From an uncultured bacterium (GTDB taxonomy: Bacteria > Patescibacteriota > Minisyncoccia > Phycocordibacterales > UBA6065), in the NCBI GenBank assembly GCA_966243015.1, contig CBIMES010000001.1, forward strand, positions 426,076 through 490,075: DNA of 64,000 nucleotides, written 5' to 3'. The stretch's first letter is position 1. Each line of letters starts with the position of its first letter. Under the pieces are notes generated by a model, which was not told the origin of the DNA, ran no database searches, and was given only the letters and a program-made list of their open reading frames with translations. Positions 3,001 through 43,647 of the stretch are shown here, piece by piece. Made by a program: the position numbers and the translations under genes.

Positions 3001-3924
3001 GTAGCTCGAGAACTGACCTCCAATGTACATCTTGCCGTCTGAAAGAAGGGCAATGTCGTTAACGCCGTAAGACGCGTACTGTCGATCGTCCACAGTCGCA
3101 AAGGATTCGTCAGTCGAACCATCTGCGTTAAGCCTCATGAGCCTGTACGACTCGTCATCGAGAGTCGAGTCCTCCTCGCACTCAGGCTCATCCTCATAGT
3201 CGCAGGTGTAGTCGTACTCGCCGTCGGCACCCTTATAGAAAAAGCTTCCCGCGACCACAATTTTGCCGTCTGGCTGCATGACCATCCTCTCCGCGGTGAC
3301 GTACAGATACTCAAACTTAGGGTCTATCGAGAAACTGTTGTCTATGCTTCCATCGCTATTAAGCCGAAGAATGCCCCTTACGTCCTCGCCCCGGTACGTT
3401 CCCCCGTTTGAGGCAAAAGCGGCGAGATAGTCACCATCCTCAAGCGCAATAACATCCCAGATTCCACCCGTGTTGGATCCCCCCGTCGACGGGTCGAAAG
3501 TCTCATCGAGCGTCCCGTCAGCATTGAGCCGAAGGATTCCCTCTGCGTCCTGGCCGTTGAACGACTCGAAGCTTCCGTATACGAGCATCTTGCCATCGTC
3601 AAGAATGTGAACGCCCCTCACGGACCCGCCGTCAAAACCTTCACCCCCGAGATCAAATGTCGAATCGAGGGTGAGATCGGCATTAAGCCTTACAAGCCCA
3701 CCCTGTACGGCGGATCCATTGTACTGATTGAAGCTTCCGCCCACGAGTACCTTTCCGTCCTCAAGCACCTTTACGAGATAAATCTCCGCATCATAGCCGC
3801 TGTAGGTAAACCCGCCGTCCGTCCCGAAGCTCGGATCAATAATCGCCGCGCGAACCGAGGTTGTAAAAGCGAGAGACAGCGCGAGCGCGAGGGCTACCTT
3901 ACAGAGGACGGAAAATCGTTTCAT
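1..3924 (-). CDS. Delta-60 repeat secreted protein (start codon at 3924; ORF runs off the window start, so 5' end in window, 3' end beyond)
   Basis: Own minus-strand translation from ATG 3924 gives signal peptide MKRFSVLCKVALALALSLAFTTSVRAAI. Repeated units follow (LNADGTLDETFDPSTGG...DGKMLVYGSF...), matching the Delta-60 repeat pattern. There is no in-window stop, so it is absent from the ORF track. Plus ORFs 547..942 and 3607..3933 are its antisense. Confidence 0.8.
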   Translation of the reverse strand, partial: MKRFSVLCKVALALALSLAFTTSVRAAIIDPSFGTDGGFTYSGYDAEIYLVKVLEDGKVLVGGSFNQYNGSAVQGGLVRLNADLTLDSTFDLGGEGFDGGSVRGVHILDDGKMLVYGSFESFNGQDAEGILRLNADGTLDETFDPSTGGSNTGGIWDVIALEDGDYLAAFASNGGTYRGEDVRGILRLNSDGSIDNSFSIDPKFEYLYVTAERMVMQPDGKIVVAGSFFYKGADGEYDYTCDYEDEPECEEDSTLDDESYRLMRLNADGSTDESFATVDDRQYASYGVNDIALLSDGKMYIGGQFSSYGNASSSNVARLNSDGTIDNTFSLEGEFWGAPVYALLVQDDGKLLVAGGFDSYDDKQYLTLIRFNADGSLDDTMPTSIAGGLYNAEIRTLALLSDGRLFMGGGYVDEYQVGYATYDVGGVVLLSLDPGVVLAPRTLSVREGDEVEDWHTDHTITVGLNTKPSAPVTVNLSSLNDEIQFSTTTFTFDPSDWDDPELYGAAPTFYTTVTAINDSVIEGNEIDQIIASVSSSDDDYDDIDADNVVVAVADNDSALLLDQTFRPTGIDGVVRALVIQPDDKSIVGGDFMGGIRRLNGDGTEDSSFDVGNGFNAQVNDIKRLSSGDIIAVGEFTQFDGENVGRIVRLNSDGSLDEGFDVGDGFNDQALDISLAADGGLFVSGYFSEFDGQQVGPIVLLDADGSLDTSFQTGLGFDGDVSHIQVQPNGKILVAGDFESYDEVSVPRGLVRLNADGSLDTAFSTNLGDGFNSSTRFVAVQPDGKIIVSGNFTEFDGELAYTSVRLNSDGTKDTSFLIPTYSYDEQTETESRFGLNGPIDSIVFLVGGKMLVGGDFSIYTTESDEDIASAVFMLNADGSLDQSLQPIVKYNEVTSIALQSDGKIVVSDMTGGRSLRRFDETGIQDESFNVWGGYGSGFPNAVKIKALSNGKYLAVGGFNGSYTQTLLMVNNDGTVDESWVPEPIVNDGVGGFFVDSDEKIMVWGDFGLARLNADGSLDETFQMDEVIDGLGIWEVVSYPGDKIMVGTDTNQTLSLVRLNADGSLDETFTLDSEIFDVDSGDSEILVDGDGKIIVSAEVIANNDYEELVRLNADGSIDEIISDNFGFHRFGLNKMIMQPDGKLLISGFFRRTSNSTPYSLTRLNSDMTLDRGFGLRSLDGQINDMRVLEDGSILIAGSFGHIAKEGESLVYGRRIMKLLPNGAVDPSFPTGGDGGGFEDTVYSFDIDSENKIIVAGQMETFRGVRVQNIVRLIDTALLENQEDVDTQNPAISNVSVTANSETEVRFSIAT

Positions 3925-4020
3925 GGAAAATGACAAATCTTTCTAAAGAAATAATGAAGATATTATACCCGACAAAGTCACGTAATAGCACAAGCGCCAT
4001 TGGCGCCAAACGGGGAAAAC

Positions 4021-4542
4021 CTAGAACATCTCCTTCTTGATACCCAGGCGGTACCCGATAATGCATGCAACTGGATGAAAAACATAGGTGAGGGCGAGTG
4101 CGAGAAAAGCGACGGGCACGCTCACGAGATCAAAGGCGAGGAACACGGCACACGTAGCGAGCATGTAATCCGCATGGTCTACCCCCACAAGGAACCCGCC
4201 TCGCGGAATGCCGATGCGCCTCTTGATAAAGCTACCCAGAACCCCTCCCACGAGAACAGTAAGGGCCTTGAGATACAAGATGCCCATCGAGTCAGGGACA
4301 AAAGGGTACAAAAGCAAAGGCAGCAAAAGCACGACAGGCAAGCTTAGGAGCCCCTGAGAATCCCCGAGAACCCTCCTCCCGTCACAAAGGACTGTTCCGA
4401 AATCCAAAGGGACGTTGAGGCGCTCAAACACGGGAAAGGACTTTCTCAGGGGACGGAGGAAGTTGAAGGACATGTTGACGACCCAACAGGGGACGGCAAA
4501 CGTCACGGCCGCAAGGAACACGCCTTGAAGCGAGAGACCCAT
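4021..4542 (-). CDS. Integral membrane protein, DUF46 / CDP-archaeol-synthase-like
   Basis: 173-aa ORF with multiple TM segments and the motif GGVLGSFIKRRIGIPRGG typical of DUF46 CTP-transferase-like proteins. The overlapping plus ORF 4000..4347 is Arg/Glu/His-rich antisense junk. Confidence 0.5.
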   Translation of the reverse strand: MGLSLQGVFLAAVTFAVPCWVVNMSFNFLRPLRKSFPVFERLNVPLDFGTVLCDGRRVLGDSQGLLSLPVVLLLPLLLYPFVPDSMGILYLKALTVLVGGVLGSFIKRRIGIPRGGFLVGVDHADYMLATCAVFLAFDLVSVPVAFLALALTYVFHPVACIIGYRLGIKKEMF

Positions 4543-4544
4543 GA

Positions 4545-5495
4545 CTACGCAAGCTTATTGAAGACACGGAGCTTCTCCTCGACGACGCGCTGCATGGCAG
4601 AAACCGTCGGCCTGAGAAGCTTATACGGAGCAACCTCGTCGGGGGTCGCGGTGACGGACGCCTTGAGCGCATCGCGGAACGCCACGCGAAGCTCGGTATT
4701 CACGTGAATGATGGCGACGCCCGCGTCGATAGCGGCGCGGAAATCGTCGGCAGAATTGCCGGACCCTCCGTGAAGGACGAGCGGAAGGCCAGTCGCCTCA
4801 GAAATCTCCCTGATGCGAGCGATATTAAGAGCCGGGTCAACGCCACCCTTGAGCATGCCATGGATGTTGCCGACCGCCGGCGCAAGCATGTCTACGCCCG
4901 TCGCCTCGGCAAAGCGCTTCGCCTCGTCAGGCTTGGTGAGGAACTCCTCGGAAATCTTCACGCCCTCGGGAATACCGTCAAGAACCTTTGACGACTTGCC
5001 GATGAAGCCGATTTCGGCCTCGACCATGATGTCACGGCCCTCGGCCCTGGCGCTGGAACGAACGTAGTCGACGCACTTTTTCGTGGCCGCCACGTTGTCG
5101 TCGAAATTCTGCTCGGTGCCGTCATAGATGCACGCGTCGTAGCCCGCGTCGACAACCTCCTTCACGCGATCAAATGAATAGGTGTGATCTGCGTTGATGA
5201 AAACAGGTTGGCCCGTCTCGGCGCGATAGCTTTCGACGAGCGCCTTCGCCTGAGCGACCCCAACGAAGTCTCGCTCGCCCTCTGACACGCCGATAATGAC
5301 CGGAATCTCTCGCCCTGACTCCTTGGACACGACCTCGGCAGCCTTCACCACCGCCCAGAAACCCTCGATGTTTGAGATATTGAAGTGGCCGATGGCGACC
5401 TTGCGAGCGAGGGCATCGTTTACGAGCGATCGCAGCGAAGGACCCTTTGAGGCTGACATCGCCGCGGACTTCCCTCCCTTGAAAAATTTGAACAT
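4545..5495 (-). CDS. fba: Fructose-bisphosphate aldolase, class II
   Basis: Class II FBA motifs (HFNISNIEG, DHTYSFD, LHGGSG). Start trimmed to MFKFFKGG (ATG at 5495), which sits after a terminator hairpin and an AT-rich promoter region. Confidence 0.9.
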   Translation of the reverse strand: MFKFFKGGKSAAMSASKGPSLRSLVNDALARKVAIGHFNISNIEGFWAVVKAAEVVSKESGREIPVIIGVSEGERDFVGVAQAKALVESYRAETGQPVFINADHTYSFDRVKEVVDAGYDACIYDGTEQNFDDNVAATKKCVDYVRSSARAEGRDIMVEAEIGFIGKSSKVLDGIPEGVKISEEFLTKPDEAKRFAEATGVDMLAPAVGNIHGMLKGGVDPALNIARIREISEATGLPLVLHGGSGNSADDFRAAIDAGVAIIHVNTELRVAFRDALKASVTATPDEVAPYKLLRPTVSAMQRVVEEKLRVFNKLA

Positions 5496-5562
5496 GCGTA
5501 AAGTGTAACACAATAAAAAAGGCCCCAAGGAATTGCTTCCAAGGGGCCAATTGGCCCAAACG

Positions 5563-5913
5563 TTAGCCACAAGGTGACGGCATGCTTCCGACAAGCCGCT
5601 CTTCCATGTCGTGGAGAGCGTTGCGGACCAGCTTTGACACCTGCTCGGGATTTCTGATGGGCTCGCAGAAATCTCGTTGAAACGAACAGACGTAACCATC
5701 GTATTCGAACGACCACTGGACATCGGGCTCGCAATCGCTGCCGAAGACATCGGCGAGCGCCTGAGCGATGGCGCCCGTGGTGTCTCGAATTTCTCGGAGA
5801 ATCGCGGCGAAATAAACCACGGTTCCCTCGATCTTTACGATACCCAGCTTTCCCGACTCGCCAACACCTTGAACGTGCTGGAGGTTTTCGAACTTAACGT
5901 CGCGGACTTTCAT
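5563..5913 (-). CDS. Hypothetical protein (116 aa)
   Basis: ORF-track ORF with plausible composition and a downstream hairpin terminator at about 5500-5540. No recognisable family. Confidence 0.45.
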   Translation of the reverse strand: MKVRDVKFENLQHVQGVGESGKLGIVKIEGTVVYFAAILREIRDTTGAIAQALADVFGSDCEPDVQWSFEYDGYVCSFQRDFCEPIRNPEQVSKLVRNALHDMEERLVGSMPSPCG

Positions 5914-6108
5914 ACATCAATGAACGAACCAGACACAGTGAATCGCATGTTTTGAGAGCCCAATTCGTTGGCTCAAGAGCGCGTGCCGTCATAGGGCGAC
6001 TCCGTACTCTACCTTTCATAATTATACACCCAAAAATAGGTATTTGTCAATATGCAAAAACCCCTGTTTTCAAAGGCTTTTCAGGGACAAACTTGGTACA
6101 ATATCCGC

Positions 6109-7104
6109 ATGTTTTCAAAACCAACAGACTTCCTGGCGATCGGTGACACGGTGACCGACGCATTCATTAGACTCAAGGAAGCCCACGTCACCTGTACCAT
6201 CGATAAGGACAACTGCGAGCTCTGCATGAAGTTCGGCGACAAGATCCCCTACGAGTCCGTCACCATCGTGAAGGCAGTCGGCAACAGCGCAAACGCCGCG
6301 GTGTCGGCGGCGCGACTCGGCCTCCGCTCTTCCCTCCTCACCAATCTCGGAGACGACCAGAACGGCAGGGACGCCCTCATCGAGCTCAAGAGAAATGGCG
6401 TCGACACGAAACACATCAGCCTCAGCAAAGGCATCGAGACCAACTACCACTACGTGCTCTGGTACGGCGACGAGCGAACCATTCTTGTGAAGCATCAGGA
6501 CTTCCCGTATCGCCTGCCGAAGATGAAGAACCCGAAGTGGGTGTACGTCAGCTCCCTCGGCGGCACCTCCTACGAGTATCATCTCGAGATTACAAGATGG
6601 CTCGAGGCGAATCCTGACATCAAGGTCGTCTTCCAGCCCGGAACGTTCCAGATGAACCTCGGTTACGAAAAGCTCGCCGCTCTCTACAGACGCTCGGACA
6701 TCTTCTTCTGCAACAAGGAAGAGGCCCAGCGTATCCTCGGCACGACCGAAGGCGACATCAAGACGCTCATGACGATGATGCGCGAGAAGGGCCCGAAACT
6801 CGTCGTCATCACCGACGGCCCGCGCGGCGCGTATACGTTCGACGGCACCGACGCCTTCTTCATGCCGCCCTACCCTGACCCAAAGGCGCCCTTCGAGCGC
6901 ACCGGCGCGGGCGACGCCTTCGCATCGACCTTCACAGCTGCCATCGCCCTCGGCAAAACCGTGGCGGAGGCCCTGACCTGGGCCCCAATCAACTCGGCCT
7001 ACGTCGTACAGGACATTGGCGCCCAGCGAGGACTCCTCACCCGCGAGCAACTCGAGAAATACCTTGCCACCGCCCCGGCAGACTACAAACCTCAGAAGAT
7101 CTAG
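6109..7104 (+). CDS. PfkB-family carbohydrate kinase (ribokinase-like)
   Basis: GD/DTVTD N-terminal motif and TGAGDAF anion-hole motif. Start chosen at MFSKPTDFLAIGD inside ORF 6052..7104. Confidence 0.85.
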   Translation: MFSKPTDFLAIGDTVTDAFIRLKEAHVTCTIDKDNCELCMKFGDKIPYESVTIVKAVGNSANAAVSAARLGLRSSLLTNLGDDQNGRDALIELKRNGVDTKHISLSKGIETNYHYVLWYGDERTILVKHQDFPYRLPKMKNPKWVYVSSLGGTSYEYHLEITRWLEANPDIKVVFQPGTFQMNLGYEKLAALYRRSDIFFCNKEEAQRILGTTEGDIKTLMTMMREKGPKLVVITDGPRGAYTFDGTDAFFMPPYPDPKAPFERTGAGDAFASTFTAAIALGKTVAEALTWAPINSAYVVQDIGAQRGLLTREQLEKYLATAPADYKPQKI

Positions 7105-9189: not shown

Positions 9190-12100
9190 CTAGTTGCCAA
9201 TCGCGACCCTCGTCCTTGCGCCGAAGTACCCCTCTGCCGGCGAGATACCCTTGGCAGACTGGAATCGCGAGAGAGCCGACCTCGTGGCGGGACCGAAGGT
9301 TGTCGTCTCAAGGCCCGGTGAACCAGCGCCCGAAACGGACACCACAAAACCATTCTCGTTGAGATATCGCTGAAGGAGTCTAATGCACGAGCCAGTTGAT
9401 CCGACCTGCATATCTGGACAAGTTCCAAGCGACTCGGGCTCAGGTGAAGGAGCTGCGGAAGCAGAAGGGATCAAATTGAGTGGGATAACGAGACCATTTA
9501 CCGTCACGCTCGCAGGCGCGGAAGGCCCAAGAAGCACGCTGAGGAGGCGAGCCAACACCGACCGGTCGATAGAGACAGAGACAGTCGGAACCACGGATGG
9601 CGCGACGACGGTCGCGGTCGTGAACGATGCGACATTCGAGGCCCTGCGAGCAGAGCTACCCGAAGAAGCTCGTGGCGGTGCCGAAGACTGATTGTCCGAA
9701 CCTTCAGATGACGGGCTCGAGAACGAGAATGAAACAGTCCTGGTTGAAGAACCTGTCGAACTTGCCCCTCGAACAGTGAGGGTCACATTGCCAGCGGATG
9801 GAGCAGCAATATCCGAACCACCGTTTGAACAGACCAAGTCCGAGAACGAAACACCGTCAAAGGAATAGGCGCAAGATTCAGAGTTTCCCCAAGAAATCGA
9901 AGGCGACCAGGAGTTCAGTGTAGAGGAAGCGACAGGAGATCCGATTGAAAGGGTCGGGGCGACCTCCGGCACGAATGAGCCGCCGTTTCGCGCGATAAAG
10001 AGAGTTGTTTCATTGTAATCGCTGTCCTGGAGATCTACCTGAGCACCGTCTGCAATCACCGTCCATGGGCCCTGTTCGTCAAATATAAATTCATGATCCG
10101 TATCCGAGATGATCAGACGTATCCTGGCGCCATCGATATCTCCACCCGAAAAAGAAGCACCGTCCCCCACGAACGTTGCGTCTCCCGTTATCGTGCCGTA
10201 GCTAGATGAATTATCATAGAATTCAGCAGACCCCTCTATGATTCCATCGTTTGAAGAATTATCCCTAAAGACGGCATCCCCGAAAATCGTCCCTTGATTC
10301 TGGGCGTACTCTCTGAATACGGCACCGTCAGCAACCGTCAAATCAATCGAGTTGTAACCATTGATGAATTCAGCCGACTTAACCGATGCGGGATCACCCG
10401 AATTTCCATACACAGTGCTCTGTACGATGAGGACATGATCATTTATACCAGGAATTGATGTCTCGTTAACACTCAGAGTTAAATCAGTCCACCAATTGTC
10501 CTGATTATTCCAATCACCGTCACCGGTGTCGTAGTCGTTGAAATAGAAGCCGTCATCAGGGTACCCGTGATACGTGATGGTACCGTATACGCTACCATCC
10601 AAAGGAAGTTCAACGGGGTAATATACATCCACATTACCCTCAACGACACCTTCGTGATAGGCCTCGACGCCTCTAAACTCGGCATTTCCCACAACCGTGC
10701 CGTCATTGCCGGAATCATTGAATATGGCATTACCCCCTATGATTCCATGGGCTTGACTTTCTGAAAGAAACTCGGCATCGCCCGTAATAGTGCCAAGCAT
10801 ATACGAATCCTCTTCAAACAAGGCGTCTCCCGTTATAGTCGCCCCATCTAGATAAGCCCCGTTCTGGAATGTTGCGAGACCAGTCACCGTAACATCGACA
10901 TAAAGAGTGCTGTCGATTACAAAGAGATTGGCAACGGCGGTCGTTGATCCCCCCGAATCACTATCAACCGAGTCCAAGAGAACGACATCGTCAGATGAAT
11001 TCGGGATTCTTCCCGCGTTTTCCGAAAGGTCGGGGCCCGTCCACCACAAGTCGGGCTCGTTCCAGTCATAATCATCTTCCCACGATTCAGGCACGTAGTA
11101 ATAAAGACCGTCTGGGTAGCCATGGAAAGTTGAAGTGCCCCCTACCGTGGCGCGAAACGGAAGCTCAACCGGAGTATACACGTCAAGATTACCCTCAATA
11201 ACAACCCCATCCGGCGAATCATCAACCCAGCTGTCGCCCCTTGCGGAAACGTTGCCTCGAATAAGGGTCCCGTACCCGAGAGCCGAGTCGATAAATTCCG
11301 CGTCACCCTTCACTTCACCGTAATTGTAAGCATCATTGATGAAACGCGCGTCCGTCGGAACCACAGCACCCTCATCATTTGCGTGACCATCGAATATAAA
11401 GAGCGTGATCTCTTGATCATCAGGACCGTACAAGGTTCCGCCGATGGATGGCTGGTAGGTGTTGTTATTGATGGTGAGCGTCGAGGTGCTGAAGGGGCCG
11501 TAATAAAGCGTCTCGACATAGGCATTGCCCGTAACCTCTATGTCACCCATGCTGATTCCCGTTCCAAAAGAGGCGTTTCCAATGACGCGATCTACCTGCA
11601 AGCCCGCATACTCCGAGTCTTCCTGCTGAGTGTTAACGAAAGACACACCCCTTTCAAGGGCCTCGCCGGTAAGACCCGTCGAGTCGATAGAATCGACGGG
11701 ATAGTACACCGAAAAATCAATAAGGGACGCGTCTAATACTGGCGCGACAGGGCCCAGAAGACGCGCGTCCATCTCGTTATGCGTTCCCGGTACCTCACCA
11801 GCGGGAACCGTGTGCGATTCGTCTGAATACCAATTATCGACATTGAACCAATCGGTGTCGCCCGCAGAGTACCAGTAGTAGTAACCATCGGTGACAGTGA
11901 AAAGCTCGGAGGCAACCGTGGCCTCATTGCCGTTCTCATCCGTGCCCCGAACCGTGAGAGTGTGCTGGCCGATAGAGGGAGCCGGAATATCATACCCCGC
12001 CGCCTCACAGTCAACGGCCTGGTAGCTTTCCTCATCAAACGCATACTCGCAAACCGCCGAGTCTCCCCACGACACACCAATGTCCCATGCGCTTGATTTG

Positions 12101-13389
12101 ATCGAGGAGCCCGGGCTCATAAAATCACCTAACTGCAGATCCGGAGGAGTGACATCGTTGTAGGTAAAGGAGACCGAGGTCGAGGTTGCCTCTCCGTTCT
12201 CATCGAGAAATATCGACAGGGTGTAATCACCGTTTGTCAGGACCTCATCCGAAAGCTCGTCGCCAGTGCTGCCGCAACTCACCACCTGTCGAGGCAACTC
12301 ATTTAACTGATACTCACAGACGGAACCGTCATCGGGACCGCCGAAGGAAATCAAAGGGTTCCACTCTCCCTCGCCGATAACGGACAAATTTGTCGGGCTC
12401 GAAATAGAAATGGTCGGTACGCCCCAATTAAACCCTATAATAGCGCCTGAACGTATGGCATAGAAGGTTTTGCCGTCCGAAGAAAAGGGAGAAACACCTC
12501 CCCATTGCTGAAACGGACTCTTTTGGCCCCAGGTCTGACCGCCGTCGAATGAGGCATACGGCGAACCTAACCCGCCGAACGAAACCATTCTCTCGCCATC
12601 GGCTGAGACTGACACATATAAACTCGAGGCGCCGGTATCCGAGGTTGACGACCAGCTTGAGCCGGAGTCACGGGAGTACCGCAGGTAGTCGTTGCTTGAT
12701 CCGACGACGACTGTCGAACCATCAGCGGAAACGGAGGCCCCACGCCAAAGACCGAGGCCAACCTCTGAGACGGCGTCCCAGGAGGCTCCCGAGTCAGTCG
12801 AGAGATACGCTGACCCAGAATCCTTCGTGGCAGCAATCACACTGCCGTCATCGGACACGGCGACATCGAACCAGTTGCCTGAGCCCGAAGCGCTCGAGGT
12901 CGCCCAGGTCGAACCGGAATCAGAGGATATAAATATATATTCGTCACTTGCGAGAGCCACGGAAGACCCGTCGCCCGATACCGCCACGGACCTCCACGGG
13001 ACGCCCGTGGGAAGACCCGTGGAAATTGTGTTCCAGGAGTTTCCGAGGTCCTCGGAAGAGTATGGCCCTCCGTTCAGACCAACCGCGACCACAAGAGATT
13101 CGTCGCGAGACATGGCGATATCACTCCATTGGGTTGAGGGAGCATCTTTTCTCTGAATAAACGCGCTCCCCCCAATCTTTTCATAGAACCAGACGTAGTC
13201 ATTGCTTGACTGATTGACGGCGACGACATTGTTTCCATCTCCGGAAGACGAGAGGGCCGTCCACGAACCGTTGAGGCCCGTGATGAAATTTTGGAAGGCG
13301 GCGAAAGCGTGGCCTGCCGATGACAGAAAAGCCATCCCCATCAAGATGACAGCGACGACGCGAAAAAATCTTTTTTTCAAGGTGAACAT
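9190..13389 (-). CDS. Giant secreted surface protein (1400 aa): signal peptide, BNR/Asp-box propeller repeats, Ig-like modules, beta-helix-like 16-aa repeats, Ser/Ala/Pro linker, C-terminal peptidoglycan-binding domain
   Basis: Start trimmed to MFTLKKRFFRVVAVILMGMAFLSSAGHAFAAF, a signal peptide with ATG at 13389. Repeated SxDxGxTW boxes (SEDLGNSW, SSDSGSTW, STDSGASW, SRDSGSSW, SFDGGQTW). Repeats of type GTITGDAEFLSESQAHGIIGGNAIFNDSGNDG. C-terminal LLQRYLNENGF...FGPATRSALSRFQSAKGI matches PG_binding_1. Confidence 0.85.
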   Translation of the reverse strand: MFTLKKRFFRVVAVILMGMAFLSSAGHAFAAFQNFITGLNGSWTALSSSGDGNNVVAVNQSSNDYVWFYEKIGGSAFIQRKDAPSTQWSDIAMSRDESLVVAVGLNGGPYSSEDLGNSWNTISTGLPTGVPWRSVAVSGDGSSVALASDEYIFISSDSGSTWATSSASGSGNWFDVAVSDDGSVIAATKDSGSAYLSTDSGASWDAVSEVGLGLWRGASVSADGSTVVVGSSNDYLRYSRDSGSSWSSTSDTGASSLYVSVSADGERMVSFGGLGSPYASFDGGQTWGQKSPFQQWGGVSPFSSDGKTFYAIRSGAIIGFNWGVPTISISSPTNLSVIGEGEWNPLISFGGPDDGSVCEYQLNELPRQVVSCGSTGDELSDEVLTNGDYTLSIFLDENGEATSTSVSFTYNDVTPPDLQLGDFMSPGSSIKSSAWDIGVSWGDSAVCEYAFDEESYQAVDCEAAGYDIPAPSIGQHTLTVRGTDENGNEATVASELFTVTDGYYYWYSAGDTDWFNVDNWYSDESHTVPAGEVPGTHNEMDARLLGPVAPVLDASLIDFSVYYPVDSIDSTGLTGEALERGVSFVNTQQEDSEYAGLQVDRVIGNASFGTGISMGDIEVTGNAYVETLYYGPFSTSTLTINNNTYQPSIGGTLYGPDDQEITLFIFDGHANDEGAVVPTDARFINDAYNYGEVKGDAEFIDSALGYGTLIRGNVSARGDSWVDDSPDGVVIEGNLDVYTPVELPFRATVGGTSTFHGYPDGLYYYVPESWEDDYDWNEPDLWWTGPDLSENAGRIPNSSDDVVLLDSVDSDSGGSTTAVANLFVIDSTLYVDVTVTGLATFQNGAYLDGATITGDALFEEDSYMLGTITGDAEFLSESQAHGIIGGNAIFNDSGNDGTVVGNAEFRGVEAYHEGVVEGNVDVYYPVELPLDGSVYGTITYHGYPDDGFYFNDYDTGDGDWNNQDNWWTDLTLSVNETSIPGINDHVLIVQSTVYGNSGDPASVKSAEFINGYNSIDLTVADGAVFREYAQNQGTIFGDAVFRDNSSNDGIIEGSAEFYDNSSSYGTITGDATFVGDGASFSGGDIDGARIRLIISDTDHEFIFDEQGPWTVIADGAQVDLQDSDYNETTLFIARNGGSFVPEVAPTLSIGSPVASSTLNSWSPSISWGNSESCAYSFDGVSFSDLVCSNGGSDIAAPSAGNVTLTVRGASSTGSSTRTVSFSFSSPSSEGSDNQSSAPPRASSGSSARRASNVASFTTATVVAPSVVPTVSVSIDRSVLARLLSVLLGPSAPASVTVNGLVIPLNLIPSASAAPSPEPESLGTCPDMQVGSTGSCIRLLQRYLNENGFVVSVSGAGSPGLETTTFGPATRSALSRFQSAKGISPAEGYFGARTRVAIGN

Positions 13390-13471
13390 AATGCAGAAAT
13401 TATAACACCACCCTTCACAAAAAAACACCGAGGGCCATTTACCCATAAAACCTGGCGCGCCCTTAAACCAC

Positions 13472-13815
13472 GGAGGATGAGAGATTCTGTCACGGGTAAT
13501 TTTCTGCCGAAAATTCCCGCGGCCCCGCCTCGTGCCGTCGCGTTCCTGCCTTCCCATAACTCATCCCCACGCAAAAGAAAAAACCGGTCAGACGGCCATG
13601 GGACGTCCTCTCGGTCTTTTGCGGAGGATGAGAGATTCGGTCCTTACAGGACCAGTACCCACGGTTGGATTTTACCTTCGCCGGGTACGGCTCGATAAAA
13701 TCTCAACCGAGCTTCGAATCTCTCACGCAGACGCAACGCGTCTGCTATCCTCCGCTTAATAAAATCGCCGCCATACGGCGGGATTTTAAAGGCGGAGGAT
13801 GAGAGATTCGAACTC
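13472..13815. repeat. Array of tRNA-Ser 3'-end-derived repeats (GGAGGATGAGAGATTC): direct copies at 13472-13487 and 13621-13640, the authentic tRNA 3' end at 13793-13815, and an inverted copy with a 22-nt hairpin insertion at 13711-13757
   Basis: Read directly. 13621-13757 forms a 137-bp unit with 19-bp terminal inverted repeats. Confidence 0.7.
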
Positions 13816-13950: not shown

Positions 13951-14715
13951 TTACCATCGGCCGCTTGATCCGCCGCCTCCCGAGCTCCCGCCCCCGAATC
14001 CGCCAAAGCCCCCGCCCCTGCCCGATCCGCCACGACCGCCCATACCGCCCAAGAGAAGGCCCGCGAGGAAATCACCGCCCGTCCCCTTGCCCGTTCCGCC
14101 GCGTCCGCCGCCAAGCCTCGCGGCAACAAGAAAGATGAGAATCATGACAATCCAGAAGAGCATGAACTCGCGTTTGTTTTTGCCCGCCTCGATCTCGTCG
14201 GCAGCCTGCTGATCGGTGACGTACTGTGCAAAGTCAGGATCTCCCTCGACGAGGGCAATAAGGGCGTCAACGCCCGCGTTTATGCCGTCATAGTACTTTC
14301 CCTCCGCGAATCGCGGCACGACAAGGGTCCGCATGACGACCGAGGAGGCCGCGTCGGTCACGACAGGCTCCATGCCGTAGCCAACCTCGATGCGAGCCTC
14401 GCGATCATTAGGCGCCACGAGGAAGAGGAGGCCGTTGTCCTTGAGCTCCTTGCCGATTCCCCACTCCTCAAAGAGCTTGACCGCATAGTTTTCGATCGTG
14501 TCGCCGCCAAGGGACGGCACGGTTACTACCGCGAGCTCGACCCCTGCCGGCCTCTCGAAATTGCCAATCTTGTTCTCGAGGTATGCCCTTTCCTCGGACG
14601 AGAGGATGCTGGCGAAGTCGTTCACGAATCCCGAGGGCCTACCTGGGCTCTCATACGCCAAAAGGGGCTGCGCGAGGCACAGACCCGTGATGATGGCGAG
14701 GAGAATCCTCTTCAT
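13951..14715 (-). CDS. TPM-domain (YgcG-like) protein with Gly-rich C-terminal tail
   Basis: Signal peptide, TPM domain, TM helix and GGRGG-rich tail. Forms the classic pair with the upstream LemA gene. Confidence 0.85.
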   Translation of the reverse strand: MKRILLAIITGLCLAQPLLAYESPGRPSGFVNDFASILSSEERAYLENKIGNFERPAGVELAVVTVPSLGGDTIENYAVKLFEEWGIGKELKDNGLLFLVAPNDREARIEVGYGMEPVVTDAASSVVMRTLVVPRFAEGKYYDGINAGVDALIALVEGDPDFAQYVTDQQAADEIEAGKNKREFMLFWIVMILIFLVAARLGGGRGGTGKGTGGDFLAGLLLGGMGGRGGSGRGGGFGGFGGGSSGGGGSSGRW

Positions 14716-37356: not shown

Positions 37357-37923
37357 CTAGTATTTGCGGATAACGCCCTTCACGACGGCGACGATGTGAA
37401 GGTCGTACTCGGGATAGATGGGCTTGTAGTTCCTGTTGGCTGGCTCGAGGTAGATCTGATTGCCCTTCTTGCGGTAGAACTTCATGGTCCAGCCGCCGTC
37501 CACCTCGGCGATGACGATGTCGCCAACCTTGGCATTGTCGGTTTTCTCGGCAACGACGAGGTCGCCCTCCCTGATGCCCTCCTCGATCATGGAGTCGCCC
37601 TTCACCTCGAGAAGGTATGTCTTCTCGCGATCCTCGACGAGATAGGTATTGAGGTTAAGGGTGTCGAGAGTGTGCTCTTCGGCGACCATTGGGATACCCG
37701 CCTCGACGAGACCGAGAAGTGGAACCTCGTCCATCATGCGCGTCGGCGAGAGCTTGCCCTGGGCGTCCTTGGTCACGACGCCAGCCTCAATCAGCTTGTT
37801 GATGAGTTTGTAGACGGCGTTCTTTGACTTGAAGCCGGTGAGATCCATGATCTCCTTGTAGCCGGGCATGCGCTTGTGCGTCGCGTAGAAGCCGGTGATC
37901 TGTGTCTTGTACTTCTCGAACAT
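37357..37923 (-). CDS. lexA: LexA repressor
   Basis: N-terminal wHTH region and C-terminal S24 peptidase motifs (GDSM and a KxGD Ser-Lys dyad region). Start trimmed to MFEKYKTQITGF (ATG 37923). Confidence 0.9.
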   Translation of the reverse strand: MFEKYKTQITGFYATHKRMPGYKEIMDLTGFKSKNAVYKLINKLIEAGVVTKDAQGKLSPTRMMDEVPLLGLVEAGIPMVAEEHTLDTLNLNTYLVEDREKTYLLEVKGDSMIEEGIREGDLVVAEKTDNAKVGDIVIAEVDGGWTMKFYRKKGNQIYLEPANRNYKPIYPEYDLHIVAVVKGVIRKY

Positions 37924-38219: not shown

Positions 38220-38248
38220 AGTATAGGTGAACTCTCGTTCACCTGCAA
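38220..38248 (-). promoter_or_regulatory. SOS promoter: -35 TTGCAG (38243-38248), LexA/Cheo box GTGAACGAGAGTTCAC (38227-38242) in the 17-nt spacer, -10 TATACT (38220-38225)
   Basis: Minus-strand reading shows a GAAC-N4-GTTC perfect palindrome exactly between consensus-like -35 and -10 hexamers. Confidence 0.75.
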
Positions 38249-38282: not shown

Positions 38283-38714
38283 CTAGGCCGTGTCCGACTC
38301 GGTGACAATGCCCTCGAATTCGTCAGAAGAGTCAGCCTCCCCCATCGCCTTGGTGTCGTGAGCCACGCCGTCTCGGTGATGCGGAGGGCAATAGAGCGTA
38401 TAGAGCTTGAGCGGCTCGGCGTCAGAGACGTTGATGACGTTGTGCCAGGTGCCGGCGGGCACGATGGCGACCGATCCGTCCGAGACCTCGTGCCTCTCGC
38501 CCGGGGCGCCGTCGACCGCGTTCAGGACGACCGCGCCGCGACCTGCCTCGAAGCGGAAGAACTGGTCCACGTCGTGCACCTCGTTGCCGATCTCCTCGCC
38601 CGGCCGAAGGCTCATGGCGACGAGCTGCACGTTCTTCGCCGTATACAGCACCTCGCGGAACTTTTCGTTCCCGACCGTCAGCCTCTCGATGTTCGCTATG
38701 TATCCTTTTTTCAT
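38283..38714 (-). CDS. Cupin-domain protein
   Basis: Cupin motifs (G...H.VDQFF...G......PAGTWHNV). Confidence 0.75.
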   Translation of the reverse strand: MKKGYIANIERLTVGNEKFREVLYTAKNVQLVAMSLRPGEEIGNEVHDVDQFFRFEAGRGAVVLNAVDGAPGERHEVSDGSVAIVPAGTWHNVINVSDAEPLKLYTLYCPPHHRDGVAHDTKAMGEADSSDEFEGIVTESDTA

Positions 38715-38757: not shown

Positions 38758-39171
38758 TTACACAATACGAATGCCCCTGAGCTCGGCGCGCAATTCCCGG
38801 TAGTTCGGCATCGCCCTGGCCACGAGATCCCAGAACCCCTGCGAGTGATTGAACTCTCCCCTGTGACAGAGCTCGTGAACGATGACATAGTCGGAGAGAT
38901 GCGCCGGCAGAAGGGCGATGCGGTAGTTGAAGTTGAGATTGCCGGACGAAGAGCAGCTCCCCCACCTGCTGCGCTGGTCGCGAATGGCGACCTTGCCGTA
39001 CGTGAATCCGTAGAACTGATTGAAGTGAGCGAGGCGGGCGTGGACGAGGGCGCGGGCGGATTCCCTGTGCACAAGATAGCTGGCGCGAGATGCGGCGGAC
39101 GGGCGACGGGCACGTCGCGGTCTCCGACGGACCTTCGTCGCGAACCTAACGCGCCAGAGCAAGTTTCTCAT
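38758..39171 (-). CDS. DUF45/YgjP-like Zn-dependent hydrolase (short form, HELCH motif)
   Basis: SRWGSCSSSGNLNFNYRIALLP...VIVHELCHRGEFNHS matches DUF45 (M48-like). It is only 137 aa and overlaps the GIY-YIG gene 3' end by 26 nt. Confidence 0.65.
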   Translation of the reverse strand: MRNLLWRVRFATKVRRRPRRARRPSAASRASYLVHRESARALVHARLAHFNQFYGFTYGKVAIRDQRSRWGSCSSSGNLNFNYRIALLPAHLSDYVIVHELCHRGEFNHSQGFWDLVARAMPNYRELRAELRGIRIV

Positions 39172-39394
39172 CGCGGGAGAGCTTCTTAATGCGAGCCTCC
39201 TCGACCGAGGCTGACGACCTGTCGGGAAAGGCCCTCGAGTACACGAGCCTCACCGGGCGACGGCTGCGGGTGTATTTTGCGCCCCTTGATCCAGGGGCGG
39301 CAGAGTTGTGCTCCTCCACCCTGCGGGCGAGGTCGGTCGTGATGCCCGTGTAGAGGGTGTTGTCGGAACAGAGGAGGATGTAGAGGTGGTACAT
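39146..39394 (-). CDS. GIY-YIG nuclease family protein (82 aa)
   Basis: YHLYILLCSDNTLYTGITTDLARRVEEH matches the GIY-YIG catalytic module. The ATG overlaps the DUF2075 stop codon (TAATG). Confidence 0.85.
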   Translation of the reverse strand: MYHLYILLCSDNTLYTGITTDLARRVEEHNSAAPGSRGAKYTRSRRPVRLVYSRAFPDRSSASVEEARIKKLSRDEKLALAR

Positions 39395-41364
39395 TAAATT
39401 TCCTTAAACCCAATACTTTTTAAGTAACCGTAGGTTTCGTCGTAAAATTCTGGGCTACGTGTCGAATCATTCGCATCTCCGTTGGGCACAACAATAACCA
39501 TGCCCTGTCGTGCACGAGTTAGCAAAACACGATAGGCGTTTTTCTGATATGTCTGCCTCTCTTCTTTTTTAATATTCTGCCATCTACTGCCAACAAAGGA
39601 ATAATGACCCCATGCATCTCCCGTATACCTAAAGTCCCCATCCCAAACCACACAAGACCAGTCGAGCTCAAGACCCTGAATGTCAAACTCAGTAGCAACA
39701 TCCTCCATGTAGTACGACGAACGAACATCGTCCTTTCCATCCAAAAACCAGTGAACCGGATCAACCGTTGACTTAACGAATATGGCATGCGGCCGTAGAC
39801 GCTCCGCCTGAGATGAGACGATCATCCCGTAACGCTCGCTTCCACGCGCATGTGTTTTAATCCAATCCTTTGCCATCTTAATGTCACGAGTGATTACTAT
39901 TGGATACTTTTCGTGTAACCCCTCCAAAGTTTTGCTTGCTTGCAACGGCCTTATATCAAGAACCTCTTTTACCAATTTAGAGACATTTTCAGCACGAAAA
40001 GAACGCATCGAAACCGCAAGGTGCAATTCGTCAATGAAATGAACATTTTTTTGGTTTTTAATTTTCTCAATAATTTCACCGCTACCGTATTCCGAGTCAG
40101 TGAGGCGTGGCGAAACATATATTTCCCATTCAGGGAAGGATCCATTGAGGCAATTTATCCATTCTTTTATACCTCCCTCACCCGTATGAATCTCCTGTCC
40201 GCCGCCGACAAGGCACACAACGGTCGCCCAATCATTGTGCCTATCCATACACGAAATAAGAAATTCTGGCTCTGAAAGATTAAAATCTTGCTGCCCTTTT
40301 TTCCTTCGCATGAAATCGACCGTCTGCTTTTTATCCCAAGCACGTTGCGCCTCATCAAAAAGTGCCACGTGCTCAATTGGCGCTTTCTGCCCCCGAAGAC
40401 AATCGTCTCTAAAGTGGTGAACGTTTTGGATAAACAAACTAACTTCACGAATTGCGTCTTTTTTTGTAAATCTATTTCCTTTTTCCTTTTCCCTTGCGAC
40501 ACGATCTCGCGCCAAAGCCTCTCGTAGAATCGAAACAAGAGGACCGTTCCCCGAAAGATACACGCTATATAAATCACTGTCCTTATCAAGGTGTTTTTGA
40601 GCCACATCAAGTCCGACAAGCGTCTTGCCCGCACCGGGAACACCGGTCACAAAACAAATCGATTTACGCCCATTTTTCTTAGAATCAGCTATAACGCCTG
40701 AAACACGAGCAACGGTGTTTTTGAGATTTATGGCACCCGCATCTGAACGAGAGATACTTTCAACTGCATGTCCGCGATAAAGCGACATTGCAGCTTCTAC
40801 AATCGTAGGTGTTGGGCTATATATGCCGTCTTCCCACTTACGTTGGTTTATTTTCCCTGAGTCAACAAATTTTTCGAGCAGAGAAAAAATATCTTTCACA
40901 CCCTCGGCATTGACAGCAATGGGCTGAAAAACCTTATCTTCTTGCTTCGAAAATTGAGGGGTTACGATAGTTTGTTTTGCCTCTGTTGCAACAAGAACAG
41001 GGGCAATGTATATATCATGGCTAGTGCTGTGAAAATTTTTGAGATCCAGGGCATAATCCCAGACTTGATCAAGTGCATATGAGGCATATGCCGATTCGCC
41101 CACCTTAAACTCAATAACGTATAAAGTGTTCCCGGTAATAACCACGGCGTCTATACGCCTTCCCATTCGGGGAATTGAGTATTCGAAATAAATAGCACCG
41201 TCCTTATTTTTTAACGCTTCCTTCAATAACCTGATCTGTGCAATCCACGTGTCTCGTTGGGCTTTGATCACATCAAAATCACTGCTTGCGGTGATCTTGC
41301 CAAGGACAGTATCGACGTCTTCACCTAGAAACGATTGTATCGTATTTGAGTAAAAGTGATTCAC
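39394..41364 (-). CDS. DUF2075 (Schlafen-like) nuclease-helicase: N-terminal PD-(D/E)xK-like module and P-loop SF1-like ATPase
   Basis: N-terminal RIDAVVITGNTLYVIEFKV (D...ExK), Walker A GVPGAGKT, C-terminal YRVLLTRARQGMVIVVP typical of the DUF2075 end. GC about 42% against a 60% background. Confidence 0.85.
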   Translation of the reverse strand: MNHFYSNTIQSFLGEDVDTVLGKITASSDFDVIKAQRDTWIAQIRLLKEALKNKDGAIYFEYSIPRMGRRIDAVVITGNTLYVIEFKVGESAYASYALDQVWDYALDLKNFHSTSHDIYIAPVLVATEAKQTIVTPQFSKQEDKVFQPIAVNAEGVKDIFSLLEKFVDSGKINQRKWEDGIYSPTPTIVEAAMSLYRGHAVESISRSDAGAINLKNTVARVSGVIADSKKNGRKSICFVTGVPGAGKTLVGLDVAQKHLDKDSDLYSVYLSGNGPLVSILREALARDRVAREKEKGNRFTKKDAIREVSLFIQNVHHFRDDCLRGQKAPIEHVALFDEAQRAWDKKQTVDFMRRKKGQQDFNLSEPEFLISCMDRHNDWATVVCLVGGGQEIHTGEGGIKEWINCLNGSFPEWEIYVSPRLTDSEYGSGEIIEKIKNQKNVHFIDELHLAVSMRSFRAENVSKLVKEVLDIRPLQASKTLEGLHEKYPIVITRDIKMAKDWIKTHARGSERYGMIVSSQAERLRPHAIFVKSTVDPVHWFLDGKDDVRSSYYMEDVATEFDIQGLELDWSCVVWDGDFRYTGDAWGHYSFVGSRWQNIKKEERQTYQKNAYRVLLTRARQGMVIVVPNGDANDSTRSPEFYDETYGYLKSIGFKEI

Positions 41365-41447
41365 GGCTTTTTTGTGGTTGTTGTTTAGGTATTATATTTA
41401 TACTAACACCCAACATACCTGAAAATCTCTTAGATTTCACACAAAAT

Positions 41448-41912
41448 TCACTTCGCGAGCCTGAATCTTCCGGTAATATTCCATGGTAGTCTTTTAAGAT
41501 TTTTCCTCTTAATATCATGCTCCCAAATCACCACCGTCTTCCACCCCTCCCTCTTAAGCGCCCTGAGATTTTTTCGATCCCTCGCCCTATTGCCCAATAT
41601 CTTATGTGACCAAAACTCGGTGTTAGTCTTGGGCATTCCCTTGGTACACTTCCTGCACCCGTGCCAGAAACAGCCGTTGATAATGATGGCAATCTTTCGC
41701 CCAGGAAAGGCGATGTCGGGCTTACCGGGGGCCTTCTTCCAGTGAAGTCGGTAGCCGCGAATGCCGAGCGAAGACAAATGCTTGCGCACGATAAGCTCAG
41801 GCTTCGTATTCTTGGACTTGTTAGCGAGCATCACGTTCCTCACCGCGATGCTTGTCGAAACGGGAGTCGGCGGACGTTTCGCAGGCTTCTTTTTTGATAA
41901 TTTCCTTATCAT
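41448..41912 (-). CDS. vsr: Very-short-patch-repair endonuclease (Vsr-like)
   Basis: KPDIAFPGRKIAIIINGCFWHGC and later WEHD match the Vsr family. No DNA m5C methyltransferase gene is adjacent. Confidence 0.85.
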   Translation of the reverse strand: MIRKLSKKKPAKRPPTPVSTSIAVRNVMLANKSKNTKPELIVRKHLSSLGIRGYRLHWKKAPGKPDIAFPGRKIAIIINGCFWHGCRKCTKGMPKTNTEFWSHKILGNRARDRKNLRALKREGWKTVVIWEHDIKRKNLKRLPWNITGRFRLAK

Positions 41913-41933
41913 TTGTTGATAAAGAATTTATCA
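41895..41933. promoter_or_regulatory. Operator-like array: two TGATAA-N5-TTATCA palindromes (41895-41911 and 41917-41933). The four hexamers are phased 11 bp apart and overlap the vsr RBS and start codon.
   Basis: Read directly. Hexamers at 41895, 41906, 41917 and 41928. Confidence 0.6.
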
Positions 41934-41966: not shown

Positions 41967-42317
41967 CTATTTAACCCTAAAAACCTCCCCTCTCCCCGTC
42001 CTCCCCACCGACACGACAAAGCCCTCCGCGGCGAGGGTGGCGAGATACCGTTCCGCCTGGGCGCGGTCGAAGCCAAGCATGTCCTGCACGTCAGACACCG
42101 AGACCTCGAGGCGATGCCTGACGAGCACTCTCACCCGCTCGAGGTTCTCGCGCCTCGCGAAAGCGTCCTCCTCGGGCGCAGATGGTGTGACGCCGGCAAC
42201 CACGCCCGCCTCGCTCATCTCCGTCGACCGTCTGCGCACGACGTAGACAATGATCGTGACGGCGGCAGCGAGGACGAGGAGGGCAGCGATGATGAGGACG
42301 ACAGGGACGATATTCAT
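41967..42317 (-). CDS. Membrane-anchored winged-HTH protein (paralog A)
   Basis: N-terminal TM helix and C-terminal wHTH-like DVQDMLGFDRAQAERYLATLAAEGFVVSVGRTGRGEVFRV. Paralogous to 43267..43647. Confidence 0.6.
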   Translation of the reverse strand: MNIVPVVLIIAALLVLAAAVTIIVYVVRRRSTEMSEAGVVAGVTPSAPEEDAFARRENLERVRVLVRHRLEVSVSDVQDMLGFDRAQAERYLATLAAEGFVVSVGRTGRGEVFRVK

Positions 42318-42412
42318 GGTTGGTTTGCGTTACATCTAATCTGTCCTAAAAGGATAATAAAAAGAAGGTAAAGTTTTGGTAAAGAAACCGATGCCCTCCC
42401 TATCACACAACA

Positions 42413-42443
42413 AAAAGAAAGGCTCAGTCCACTGAGCCTTTCT
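42413..42443 (-). terminator. Terminator aaaaagaaaGGCTCAGTCCACTGAGCCtttctc (copy 3 of the hairpin family, CC-loop variant) downstream of the NYN gene
   Basis: Read directly. It is 30 nt identical to the copy at 43211-43243. Confidence 0.75.
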
Positions 42444-42611: not shown

Positions 42612-43184
42612 CTAAACCGAGGCCCTCCGCTCAAGATCCCTTCCCCATATATCACCCTCTATAAGAAGAACGTCATAATACCCATCAGACCCTGTACGGA
42701 GCTCTTGGGATACATTGTTTCTCGAGGAGAATACACAGGCCTTCTTTCCCCTGCTTCTCACATAGGTGATAAGGGCGAGGAAATCTGAGTCTCCGGTAAA
42801 GAACACGGCCGTATCGTATACCGAGACGTTGTGCACGACATCGATGGTAATTTCGACATCCATATTGCCCTTCTCCTTGATCAAATCTCCTTGGGCGCCC
42901 TGCACGGGTATTCGCTTGAGCTCTTTCTTGACGACCGTAAAGCCAAGCCCTTTCTTGAGGTACGTGTAAAAACGATGCTTGCCGTCGAGATCATAATCCC
43001 GGGTCCCTTTCGCGGGATAGGCCGTATAGTAAAACACCTTGAGCTCAGTTGCCGAAAATTCACGGACGAGAAAGGCCCTGAGCTTCTCATAGTCAAACAT
43101 CTTGCCGCGTGCCTTCTGGGCCTGCCAGAGATTGCTCGCGTCGATGAAAACATAAACACGGTTGTTTTGCGGTAAGTCGACCAT
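42612..43184 (-). CDS. NYN-domain (LabA-like, PIN-fold) nuclease family protein
   Basis: VYVFIDASNLW and TGDSDF motifs of the NYN/LabA family. Confidence 0.85.
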   Translation of the reverse strand: MVDLPQNNRVYVFIDASNLWQAQKARGKMFDYEKLRAFLVREFSATELKVFYYTAYPAKGTRDYDLDGKHRFYTYLKKGLGFTVVKKELKRIPVQGAQGDLIKEKGNMDVEITIDVVHNVSVYDTAVFFTGDSDFLALITYVRSRGKKACVFSSRNNVSQELRTGSDGYYDVLLIEGDIWGRDLERRASV

Positions 43185-43210: not shown

Positions 43211-43243
43211 ATAAAGAAAGGCTCAGTCCACTGAGCCTTTCTT
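43211..43243 (-). terminator. Terminator ataaagaaaGGCTCAGTCCACTGAGCCtttcttc (copy 4 of the hairpin family, CC-loop variant) downstream of wHTH paralog B
   Basis: Read directly. Confidence 0.75.
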
Positions 43244-43266: not shown

Positions 43267-43647
43267 CTAGCGCACCGCCCTGTACGTCACGCCCCTTCCC
43301 TTGTCGCCGTGGCGGACGAGCAGACCCTCGGCCTCAAGCTCGTGCAGGTACCGCGTGGCCGTCGCGTCAGAGACGCCGAGAGCCCGCTCTACGTCGTTGT
43401 TCGCGATCTCCTCGCTCTCGTACGCGAGGTCGAGCACGTCCTGGAGATGCTTCTGCCTGCGGGCCTGGATCGGCGTGAAGTGGTCGAGATTGCCCCGCTC
43501 CTCGTGCCTGTGCCAGAAGAGGAGGAAGAAGACGGTGAGGACCGCGAAGAAGAGCGCGAGCATCGGGTCGATGAAGGCGACAACGAGGACGAATCCCGCC
43601 ATGAGGGTGCCAATCGTCTTTTTTGAGATCTCTATGTCCATGCCCAC
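43267..43647 (-). CDS. Membrane-anchored winged-HTH protein (paralog B)
   Basis: Two TM helices and C-terminal DVERALGVSDATATRYLHELEAEGLLVRHGDKGRGVTYRAV, which aligns with paralog A. Confidence 0.6.
   Translation of the reverse strand: MGMDIEISKKTIGTLMAGFVLVVAFIDPMLALFFAVLTVFFLLFWHRHEERGNLDHFTPIQARRQKHLQDVLDLAYESEEIANNDVERALGVSDATATRYLHELEAEGLLVRHGDKGRGVTYRAVR

Follow-up and report, generated by a model that had tools for sequence, protein, structure and literature searches.

What is a row of four nuclease-type genes doing beside lexA in a Patescibacteria chromosome, and do these genes belong together? The 64-kb stretch of DNA that we analysed, which is called the window below, is part of a high-GC Patescibacteria chromosome of the Paceibacteria type. 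It contains an islet, with all genes on the minus strand, that encodes a Vsr endonuclease, a DUF2075 nuclease-helicase, a GIY-YIG nuclease and a YgjP-like (DUF45) protein (Table 1). An earlier note on this DNA had described the four co-directional open reading frames (ORFs), all of which are present with their domains confirmed by Pfam, and had taken them for one effector module, for defence or DNA damage, placed in the neighbourhood of lexA. We arrive at a different explanation, to which we assign a probability of about 70%: the DUF2075 gene, a member of the candidate defence family PDC-S41, is cargo that lies beside a partnerless Vsr in a variable hotspot of Patescibacteria chromosomes, and the GIY-YIG and DUF45 genes are native to this place.

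Syntenic relatives were found in two ways, via the closest homologues of Vsr and via homologues of LexA (loci in other genomes carry numbers beginning with L). Eight lineages, the window included, have the same backbone but different contents in one slot. On the upstream side the backbone consists of a DEAD-box helicase gene, with or without an ABC ATPase gene, PLD-type genes or genes for transmembrane winged-helix (TM-wHTH) proteins, after which the slot follows. The downstream side consists of (PPIase), the YgjP-like and GIY-YIG genes, whose order flips between lineages, (cupin), a gene for a protein of 65-69 amino acids (aa), lexA, DAGK and further genes shared with the window. The slot of the window holds Vsr and PDC-S41. 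Vsr is accompanied by a different DUF2075 gene on the opposite strand in L087 and L090, by a 318-aa protein and an HNH protein in L084-L086 and L093 (for L093 inferred from an identical Vsr), by a 160-aa protein and a McrB-N/NucS-type nuclease resembling PDC-S02 of PADLOC in L088, L089 and L091, and by a convergent C5 DNA methylase and a BglII-type endonuclease in L171 and L172. The remaining three lineages have no Vsr: L173 carries a 463-aa protein and two Dam-like methylases, L174 a 112-aa gene, with a PemK toxin gene just upstream of the slot, and L175 no recognised defence gene. The slot is a hotspot of restriction and defence gene turnover, and Vsr is an accessory gene at its upstream edge, missing from three lineages and in canonical company in one. 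That Vsr belongs to the core of the backbone is ruled out by the LexA-anchored relatives without it (L173-L175).

Among the other slot contents, the nuclease of L088 (6872-7810; also in L089 and L091) lies after an orphan Vsr with the 160-aa gene between them. It is a 312-aa protein with a McrB-N-like 5-methylcytosine-binding domain (E 7.5e-17 to Escherichia coli McrB-N structures) and a NucS/EndoMS-type nuclease domain, and is probably a one-chain type IV restriction enzyme. A PDB search with the 318-aa gene downstream of Vsr in L084 gave no match.

Backbone proteins of the window are 58-86% identical to those of L084, including GIY-YIG (84%), DUF45 (86%) and LexA (85%), and Vsr is 69% identical; the values for the more distant L171 are 74% for LexA, 70% for DUF45, 61% for GIY-YIG and 58% for Vsr. 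The identity of Vsr, which is 67-78% to the Vsr proteins of syntenic Patescibacteria and 58-78% when L171 is included, tracks the divergence of the backbone. GIY-YIG and DUF45 are kept, together with cupin and lexA, without Vsr or DUF2075 in L173-L175 and with other cargo in L084 and L171, and they have a native G+C content at third codon positions (GC3; 0.80 for GIY-YIG). Due to their high identities and their presence without the cargo, both are native neighbours outside the acquired unit, and thus ordinary conserved genes of this region. Both domain matches are above the gathering score, with 57.3 bits for GIY-YIG (PF01541, E 2e-15, gathering score 22.6) and 124.3 bits for the YgjP-like protein (PF01863, E 9e-36, gathering score 26). 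The DUF45 protein covers the C-terminal half of its profile (positions 97-205 of 207) and has the HELCH motif. Forms of 123-128 aa are found in L084, L171 and L007, and longer ones of 154-179 aa in L174 and L175; that DUF45 is a truncated pseudogene split by an insertion is ruled out, since relatives have conserved such short forms (123-137 aa).

The drop in GC to which the earlier note had pointed is real. The DUF2075 gene has 43.8% GC and a GC3 of 0.41, and vsr 49.9% and an intermediate GC3 of 0.64, compared with 56-66% and 0.74-0.89 for the backbone genes and 57.8% GC for the whole window; along the DNA the GC content dips to 0.41-0.46 across 39400-41600. The PADLOC model PDC-S41 fits the DUF2075 protein over its full length (E 6.6e-285, 944.6 bits), with residues 1-656 aligned to positions 1-653 of the 657 in the profile, and GIY-YIG and DUF45 match no PADLOC model. 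Pfam identifies a DUF2075/SLFN-g3 helicase (PF09848, E 7e-82) and, weakly, NERD at the N-terminus. The protein consists of an N-terminal, HsdR/NERD-like PD-(D/E)xK nuclease followed by a DUF2075/Schlafen-group-3 SF1 helicase of the Dda/Pif1-like kind, with fold matches to HsdR and SF1B helicases. The nuclease residues D72, E85 and K87, Walker A (GVPGAGKT, 241-248) and Walker B (DEAQ, 337-340) are invariant in the 26 homologues that were aligned. The AlphaFold model is of mediocre quality overall (pLDDT 69.6), being good for the N-terminal 200 residues and unreliable for residues 518-576. With this model, Foldseek against the PDB gave only weak matches, the best to human SLFN14 (E 1.8e-3), and a sequence-profile search of the PDB with the PDC-S41 alignment gave no match. 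PHROGs and NCBIfam contained no family for PDC-S41, GIY-YIG or DUF45 beyond those of Pfam.

PDC-S41 is a large and highly conserved family, with more than 8000 homologues among database proteins, typically of 657 aa, and an identity of 63-73% among the 120 best of them. In data with one genome per species it is present at 58-70% identity in Patescibacteria, Acidobacteriota, Planctomycetota, Bacteroidota, Chloroflexota, Proteobacteria and other phyla, a cross-phylum spread that fits frequent horizontal transfer. A GC3 of 0.41 against about 0.8 in the backbone, taken together with an overall identity of 58-73% over about 15 phyla, marks the gene as foreign. It can be regarded as a single-gene anti-phage defence candidate that was acquired horizontally and recently; the earlier note had already suspected a foreign origin from its composition, as well as a role in defence. 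However, the note had considered the genes as not belonging to any named system, and PADLOC already lists the DUF2075 protein, under the name PDC-S41, as a candidate system of one gene. There are 145 such "phage defence candidates" (PDC), all of them predictions based on genes that lie within BREX, DISARM and type I restriction-modification systems (Payne et al., 2024, bioRxiv 10.1101/2024.01.29.577857). The name "PDC-S41" was not found in a literature search, and the supplements of the PADLOC candidate paper held nothing specific on it.

We examined 80 PDC-S41 loci in other genomes together with their flanks (at most 10 kb per side). GIY-YIG was adjacent to PDC-S41 in none of the 80, DUF45 was near it in one (L007), and clustering of the neighbouring ORFs gave no family present in more than 8 loci. 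Recurrent neighbours are MazG-like, Fic, HNH, RhuM/DinD-like and AbiEi-like genes as well as a second DUF2075 paralogue, and some loci have methylase fragments or Gabija, which gives them the flavour of defence islands. The closest genomic homologue (70% identical) is found in L004, a 6.5-kb contig with 37% GC labelled Kaiserbacteria, where a complete Gabija pair (GajA E 1e-244, GajB E 4e-213) lies directly upstream of PDC-S41 (366-6246). Except for a few pairs of loci that share their flanks mutually, the flanking DNA is not conserved. PDC-S41 has no fixed partner. A mobile element that carries the islet was considered and rejected: neither an integrase nor a tRNA gene lies nearby in the window, no conserved element ends were found, no repeats bracket vsr and DUF2075, and apart from the few pairs just mentioned the PDC-S41 loci share no flanking DNA. 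In L007 (Nomurabacteria; 9770-11962, 13114-13497, 14150-14566) the PDC-S41 frame is broken into two ORFs, owing to a frameshift or to an error of assembly. A short DUF45 gene and a cupin gene, both homologous to those of the window, follow about 1.2 kb downstream, and L007 may represent a second, independent arrival of PDC-S41 near the same backbone genes.

The Vsr protein matches PF03852 (E 7e-22), scores 118.8 bits with TIGR00632 against a curated cut-off of 97.85, and shows the key residues in an alignment with E. coli Vsr (1cw0, E 1.2e-15). It retains the catalytic Asp (PGKPD), the His of GCFWH (in NGCFWHGCRKC), the wedge Trp of EFW, and WEH, as well as the Cys/His zinc ligands and the intercalating aromatics, a signature indistinguishable from that of methylase-linked Vsr proteins. 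Judged by their signatures, the catalytic residues of Vsr and DUF2075 are thus both intact. As the earlier note had observed, there is no dcm gene nearby. A hidden Markov model (HMM) for C5-methyltransferases, which was home-built from Vsr-adjacent methylases since the PROSITE C5-methylase patterns alone are too insensitive, gave no match in the six-frame translation of the whole window. Furthermore, among the loci to which this model was applied, the 38 closest Vsr relatives had no C5-methylase in their flanks, which extended to 8 kb at most and were shorter on short contigs, versus 32 of 47 more distant relatives that have one near Vsr. Partnerless Vsr proteins are common in this part of the family.

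The nearest Vsr clade outside the Patescibacteria comprises Coriobacteriia-like homologues from gut metagenomes (L097-L118, L170), which are 54-59% identical. Their synteny is fixed: Vsr stands between a Zn-phospholipase-C-like gene (in L170 also DXP synthase) on one side and genes for a metallophosphoesterase and a UDG-like protein on the other. No C5-methylase is present within 8 kb, and these orphan Vsr genes apparently have a housekeeping role.

A search of the 80 PDC-S41 loci with a Vsr profile gave eight significant matches, all of them within 1.7 kb of PDC-S41 (P about 6e-6 with uniform placement in the flanks as null). About 10% of the PDC-S41 genes elsewhere (8-10 of 80) abut vsr genes or fragments, whereas at least 70 of the 80 loci are without any Vsr sequence. 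The association of Vsr and DUF2075, which the earlier note had proposed to test in other genomes, therefore recurs beyond chance, but most PDC-S41 genes do without it. Full-length vsr genes lie about 570 nt downstream of PDC-S41 in L011 and L047, C-terminal fragments 0-17 nt past its stop codon in L023 and L060, and inverted pieces upstream of it in L034, L043 and L061. In L038 a spacer of 91 nt, comparable to that of the window, lies between an N-terminal fragment and the start of PDC-S41. Four of the eight matches are fragments, one is full-length but degenerate (L047, with NGDFRHGW) and one is marginal (L061). In the Vsr-linked loci, the PDC-S41 proteins do not form a single clade. L047 (9429-12996) has a 5' fragment of a C5-methylase gene (HMM positions 8-129 of 379) that abuts the start of PDC-S41, with the degenerate vsr on the other side, and appears to record how PDC-S41 replaced most of a dcm gene. 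In the simplest reading, PDC-S41 would repeatedly replace the methylase and endonuclease genes of C5-methylase/Vsr modules, which matches the contents of L171 and of the window at one and the same hotspot. Co-location in defence islands alone as a cause of Vsr near PDC-S41 is weakened by the tight proximity.

The explanation that we favour assumes that the slot once held a type II restriction-modification module of C5-methylase, endonuclease and Vsr, as it still does in L171. Methylase and endonuclease would then have been swapped for other cargo, namely PDC-S41 in the window, the McrB-N/NucS nuclease in L088, the HNH pair in L084 and the DUF2075 gene in L087, and Vsr would have been left partnerless. 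In the light of L171, with its Vsr, C5-methylase and BglII-type endonuclease on the same backbone, the Vsr of the window looks like the intact leftover of such a module whose other genes were replaced. The solitary Vsr, which had been proposed to be a non-canonical effector, is for the same reason best read as the remnant of a canonical module. It may either still repair the T:G mismatches of a C5-methylase encoded elsewhere, or be a relic that has not yet decayed. Several points weigh against this explanation. The order of events, with the module first and the replacement later, comes from a comparison of lineages, with no rooted reconstruction behind it. At least five lineages have conserved an intact Vsr although no methylase is nearby, as one would expect of a gene still in use rather than of a relic in decay, and its intermediate GC3 means that vsr could have been exchanged along with the cargo. 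Moreover, two sister lineages independently carry different DUF2075 genes beside Vsr, and island co-location does not fully explain either this or the tenth of PDC-S41 genes that touch vsr. Finally, PDC-S41 is a predicted defence gene, one candidate among 145.

It is possible, though we would not expect it, that Vsr is a working housekeeping repair enzyme for a C5-methyltransferase encoded elsewhere and that PDC-S41 merely landed beside it. This is compatible with the explanation above, to which it adds a current function of Vsr, and it would account for the intact catalytic and zinc-site signature, identical to that of methylase-linked Vsr, for the conservation over several Patescibacteria lineages and for the fixed housekeeping synteny of the methylase-less gut clade. 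The missing C5-methylase, both in the window and in the flanks of the 38 closest relatives, argues against it, as does the lack of Vsr in three syntenic relatives, by which it is not core. A quite different and unlikely idea is that PDC-S41 works against cytosine-5 methylation or depends on it, perhaps as a nuclease-helicase that resembles type IV enzymes and is directed at modified DNA, and in a variant of it Vsr nicking and PDC-S41 would act together. If true, PDC-S41 could establish itself only where the resident C5-methylase has been destroyed. This would explain why PDC-S41 sits on the ruins of dcm and vsr (the dcm fragment of L047, the vsr fragments of L023, L038 and L060, and the intact orphan vsr of the window), why the slot alternates between C5-methylase restriction-modification (L171) and a McrB-N nuclease that reads 5-methylcytosine (L088), and why Vsr is the sole survivor of the original module.

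Very doubtful is a two-gene defence module, in which the Vsr nickase makes or recognises a lesion or nick where the nuclease-helicase loads and degrades the DNA. The proximity of all eight significant Vsr matches speaks for it, as do the intact Vsr of the window, the different DUF2075 gene next to Vsr in its closest Vsr relative (L087), and the literature on ARMADA and Druantia-like systems, in which defence helicases carry fused nuclease domains of the Vsr type. However, a functional link is disfavoured because most PDC-S41 genes are without Vsr and most linked Vsr copies are fragments or degenerate. In addition, the position and orientation of Vsr vary, the linked PDC-S41 proteins are of mixed descent, PDC-S41 already has a nuclease of its own, and in the window the two genes are separated by the spacer and differ in GC3. 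Hardly credible, finally, is the four-gene effector operon itself. The genes are co-directional with hydrolase-type domains in all four, DUF2075 and GIY-YIG overlap by 1 nt, and no strong terminator was found between wHTH1 and cupin. Against this, the genes are not co-conserved: GIY-YIG, DUF45, cupin and lexA persist without Vsr and DUF2075 or with other cargo, GIY-YIG and DUF45 change their order, and next to PDC-S41 Vsr is seen in 8-10 of the 80 loci, DUF45 in one and GIY-YIG in none. Composition divides the genes into native and foreign ones, and the sole LexA box is downstream of the group. A false lead is hereby removed, as there is no new four-gene nuclease system. What the window contains is a further copy of the already known PDC-S41, located in a restriction and defence hotspot of Patescibacteria and beside an intact orphan Vsr.

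How the foreign gene is connected to its native neighbours can be read from the junctions. The stop codon of DUF2075 and the ATG of GIY-YIG have one base in common (TAATG, 39392-39396), as the earlier note had read, and with the annotated ATG the GIY-YIG and DUF45 genes overlap by 26 nt. No translational coupling exists at the vsr/DUF2075 junction, with its 83-nt spacer, unlike what the earlier note had described. In this compact genome the cargo stops precisely where the following native gene begins, which explains the overlap of DUF2075 and GIY-YIG; the overlap probably allows read-through and co-expression. A promoter-like site (42354-42383) precedes wHTH1, and read-through co-transcription of native and foreign genes is plausible from the sequence.

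The LexA protein scores 120.2 bits with TIGR00498 (cut-off 110.95). The only GAAC-N4-GTTC sequence in the 64 kb is located at 38229-38240, downstream of the islet, within a promoter upstream of the 69-aa gene and lexA. Promoter and box are kept at this place in seven relatives (L084, L086, L171-L175) in the form TTGCAG GTGAAC-N4-GTTCAC[C/T] TATAC, upstream of the 65-69-aa gene that precedes lexA. This indicates a Gram-positive-type SOS box in this lineage of the candidate phyla radiation (CPR), and the promoter can be assumed to drive the 69-aa gene and lexA. A scan of the window for the box, with the Cheo-type motif assumed from the conservation in the seven relatives, found none upstream of vsr, PDC-S41 or GIY-YIG. 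By its promoter sequences the islet has no apparent SOS link; its placement near lexA, which had been thought to be functional, belongs to the backbone.

Table 1. Genes and sites of the islet and its surroundings (positions in the window).
Feature	Position	Strand	Description
lexA	37357-37923	-	LexA, 188-aa form; native backbone gene; anchor for finding syntenic relatives
Promoter with embedded LexA (Cheo-type) box	38220-38248	-	TTGCAG-GTGAACGAGAGTTCACC-TATACT; -35 TTGCAG, -10 TATACT
cupin_2 gene	38283-38714	-	native backbone gene
YgjP-like/DUF45 gene	38758-39171	-	137 aa, short form, HExxH protein; native backbone gene
GIY-YIG gene	39146-39394	-	82 aa; native backbone gene
DUF2075/PDC-S41 gene	39394-41364	-	656 aa, GTG start at 41364; acquired cargo
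Spacer from vsr to PDC-S41 start	41365-41447	-	83 nt, AT-rich
vsr	41448-41912	-	154 aa; intact Vsr-type T:G mismatch endonuclease; accessory gene
wHTH1	41967-42317	-	TM and winged-helix protein; native, GC3 0.80; directly upstream of vsr

Further upstream, an exact 30-nt direct repeat (42414-42443 and 43213-43242) brackets a low-GC gene for a NYN-domain protein (42612-43184, GC3 0.62), and each copy of the repeat is a terminator-like hairpin (AAAGAAAGGCTCAGT-CC-ACTGAGCCTTTCT). The NYN gene with its repeats seems to be another small insertion, in which a terminator was duplicated. In L084 a NYN-domain gene (32% identical) is placed elsewhere, between cupin and the 69-aa gene. wHTH1 has a paralogue at 43267-43647, also on the minus strand. 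The two small proteins are 33% identical, both have a transmembrane helix in the N-terminal part and a winged helix in the C-terminal part, and each of their genes precedes a low-GC nuclease gene, vsr and NYN, respectively. Homologues of these TM-wHTH proteins are encoded upstream of vsr in L084, L087 and L088, that of wHTH1 being directly upstream in L087.

Compared with the other members of the PADLOC family PDC-S41, the copy in the window is alike in its end-to-end match, its single-gene format and its variable, defence-rich neighbours, and the family likewise has copies in or next to restriction-modification genes (L047, L073 and the slot of the L171 type). There is no structural difference; what distinguishes the window copy is its setting in a Patescibacteria genome after an orphan vsr. 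Single-protein anti-phage defences composed of a nuclease and DUF2075 are Nhi (S. epidermidis SERP2475; Bari et al., 2022) and 'Nhi-like' (Millman et al., 2022). With these, the protein of the window shares the architecture of an N-terminal, HsdR-like PD-(D/E)xK nuclease and a DUF2075 SF1 helicase in one polypeptide and the format of a stand-alone defence gene. However, it is outside the Nhi family, as the PADLOC Nhi model matches the P-loop only (E 3.3e-6, residues 231-264), and activity on phage replication intermediates is demonstrated for Nhi only. By analogy, PDC-S41 alone might couple ATP-driven translocation on invading or replicating phage DNA to cleavage by its N-terminal nuclease. 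Its contact with remnants of vsr and dcm would be a clue to what this abundant candidate senses in the many phyla in which it occurs.

In E. coli, Dcm and Vsr constitute very short patch repair. The Vsr of the window is a bona fide member of the family known from Dcm-Vsr and from the V genes of type II restriction-modification modules, and the syntenic relative L171 has the complete set in the same slot, whereas in the window and the 38 closest Vsr relatives of the comparison above no C5-methylase is adjacent and its position is held by other nucleases. The hotspot as a whole resembles the core-gene-flanked defence hotspots or 'immigration control' regions known from the variable hsd-mcr-mrr type loci of enterobacteria, since here, too, the flanks are conserved and methylating (restriction-modification) and methyl-restricting (McrB-N nuclease) contents alternate between relatives. 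It differs in that no integrase, tRNA gene or conserved element ends were found, and in the host, which belongs to the CPR/Patescibacteria: even these bacteria with their tiny genomes keep a chromosomal hotspot in which restriction-modification, methyl-dependent restriction and helicase-nuclease genes interchange beside a surviving Vsr.

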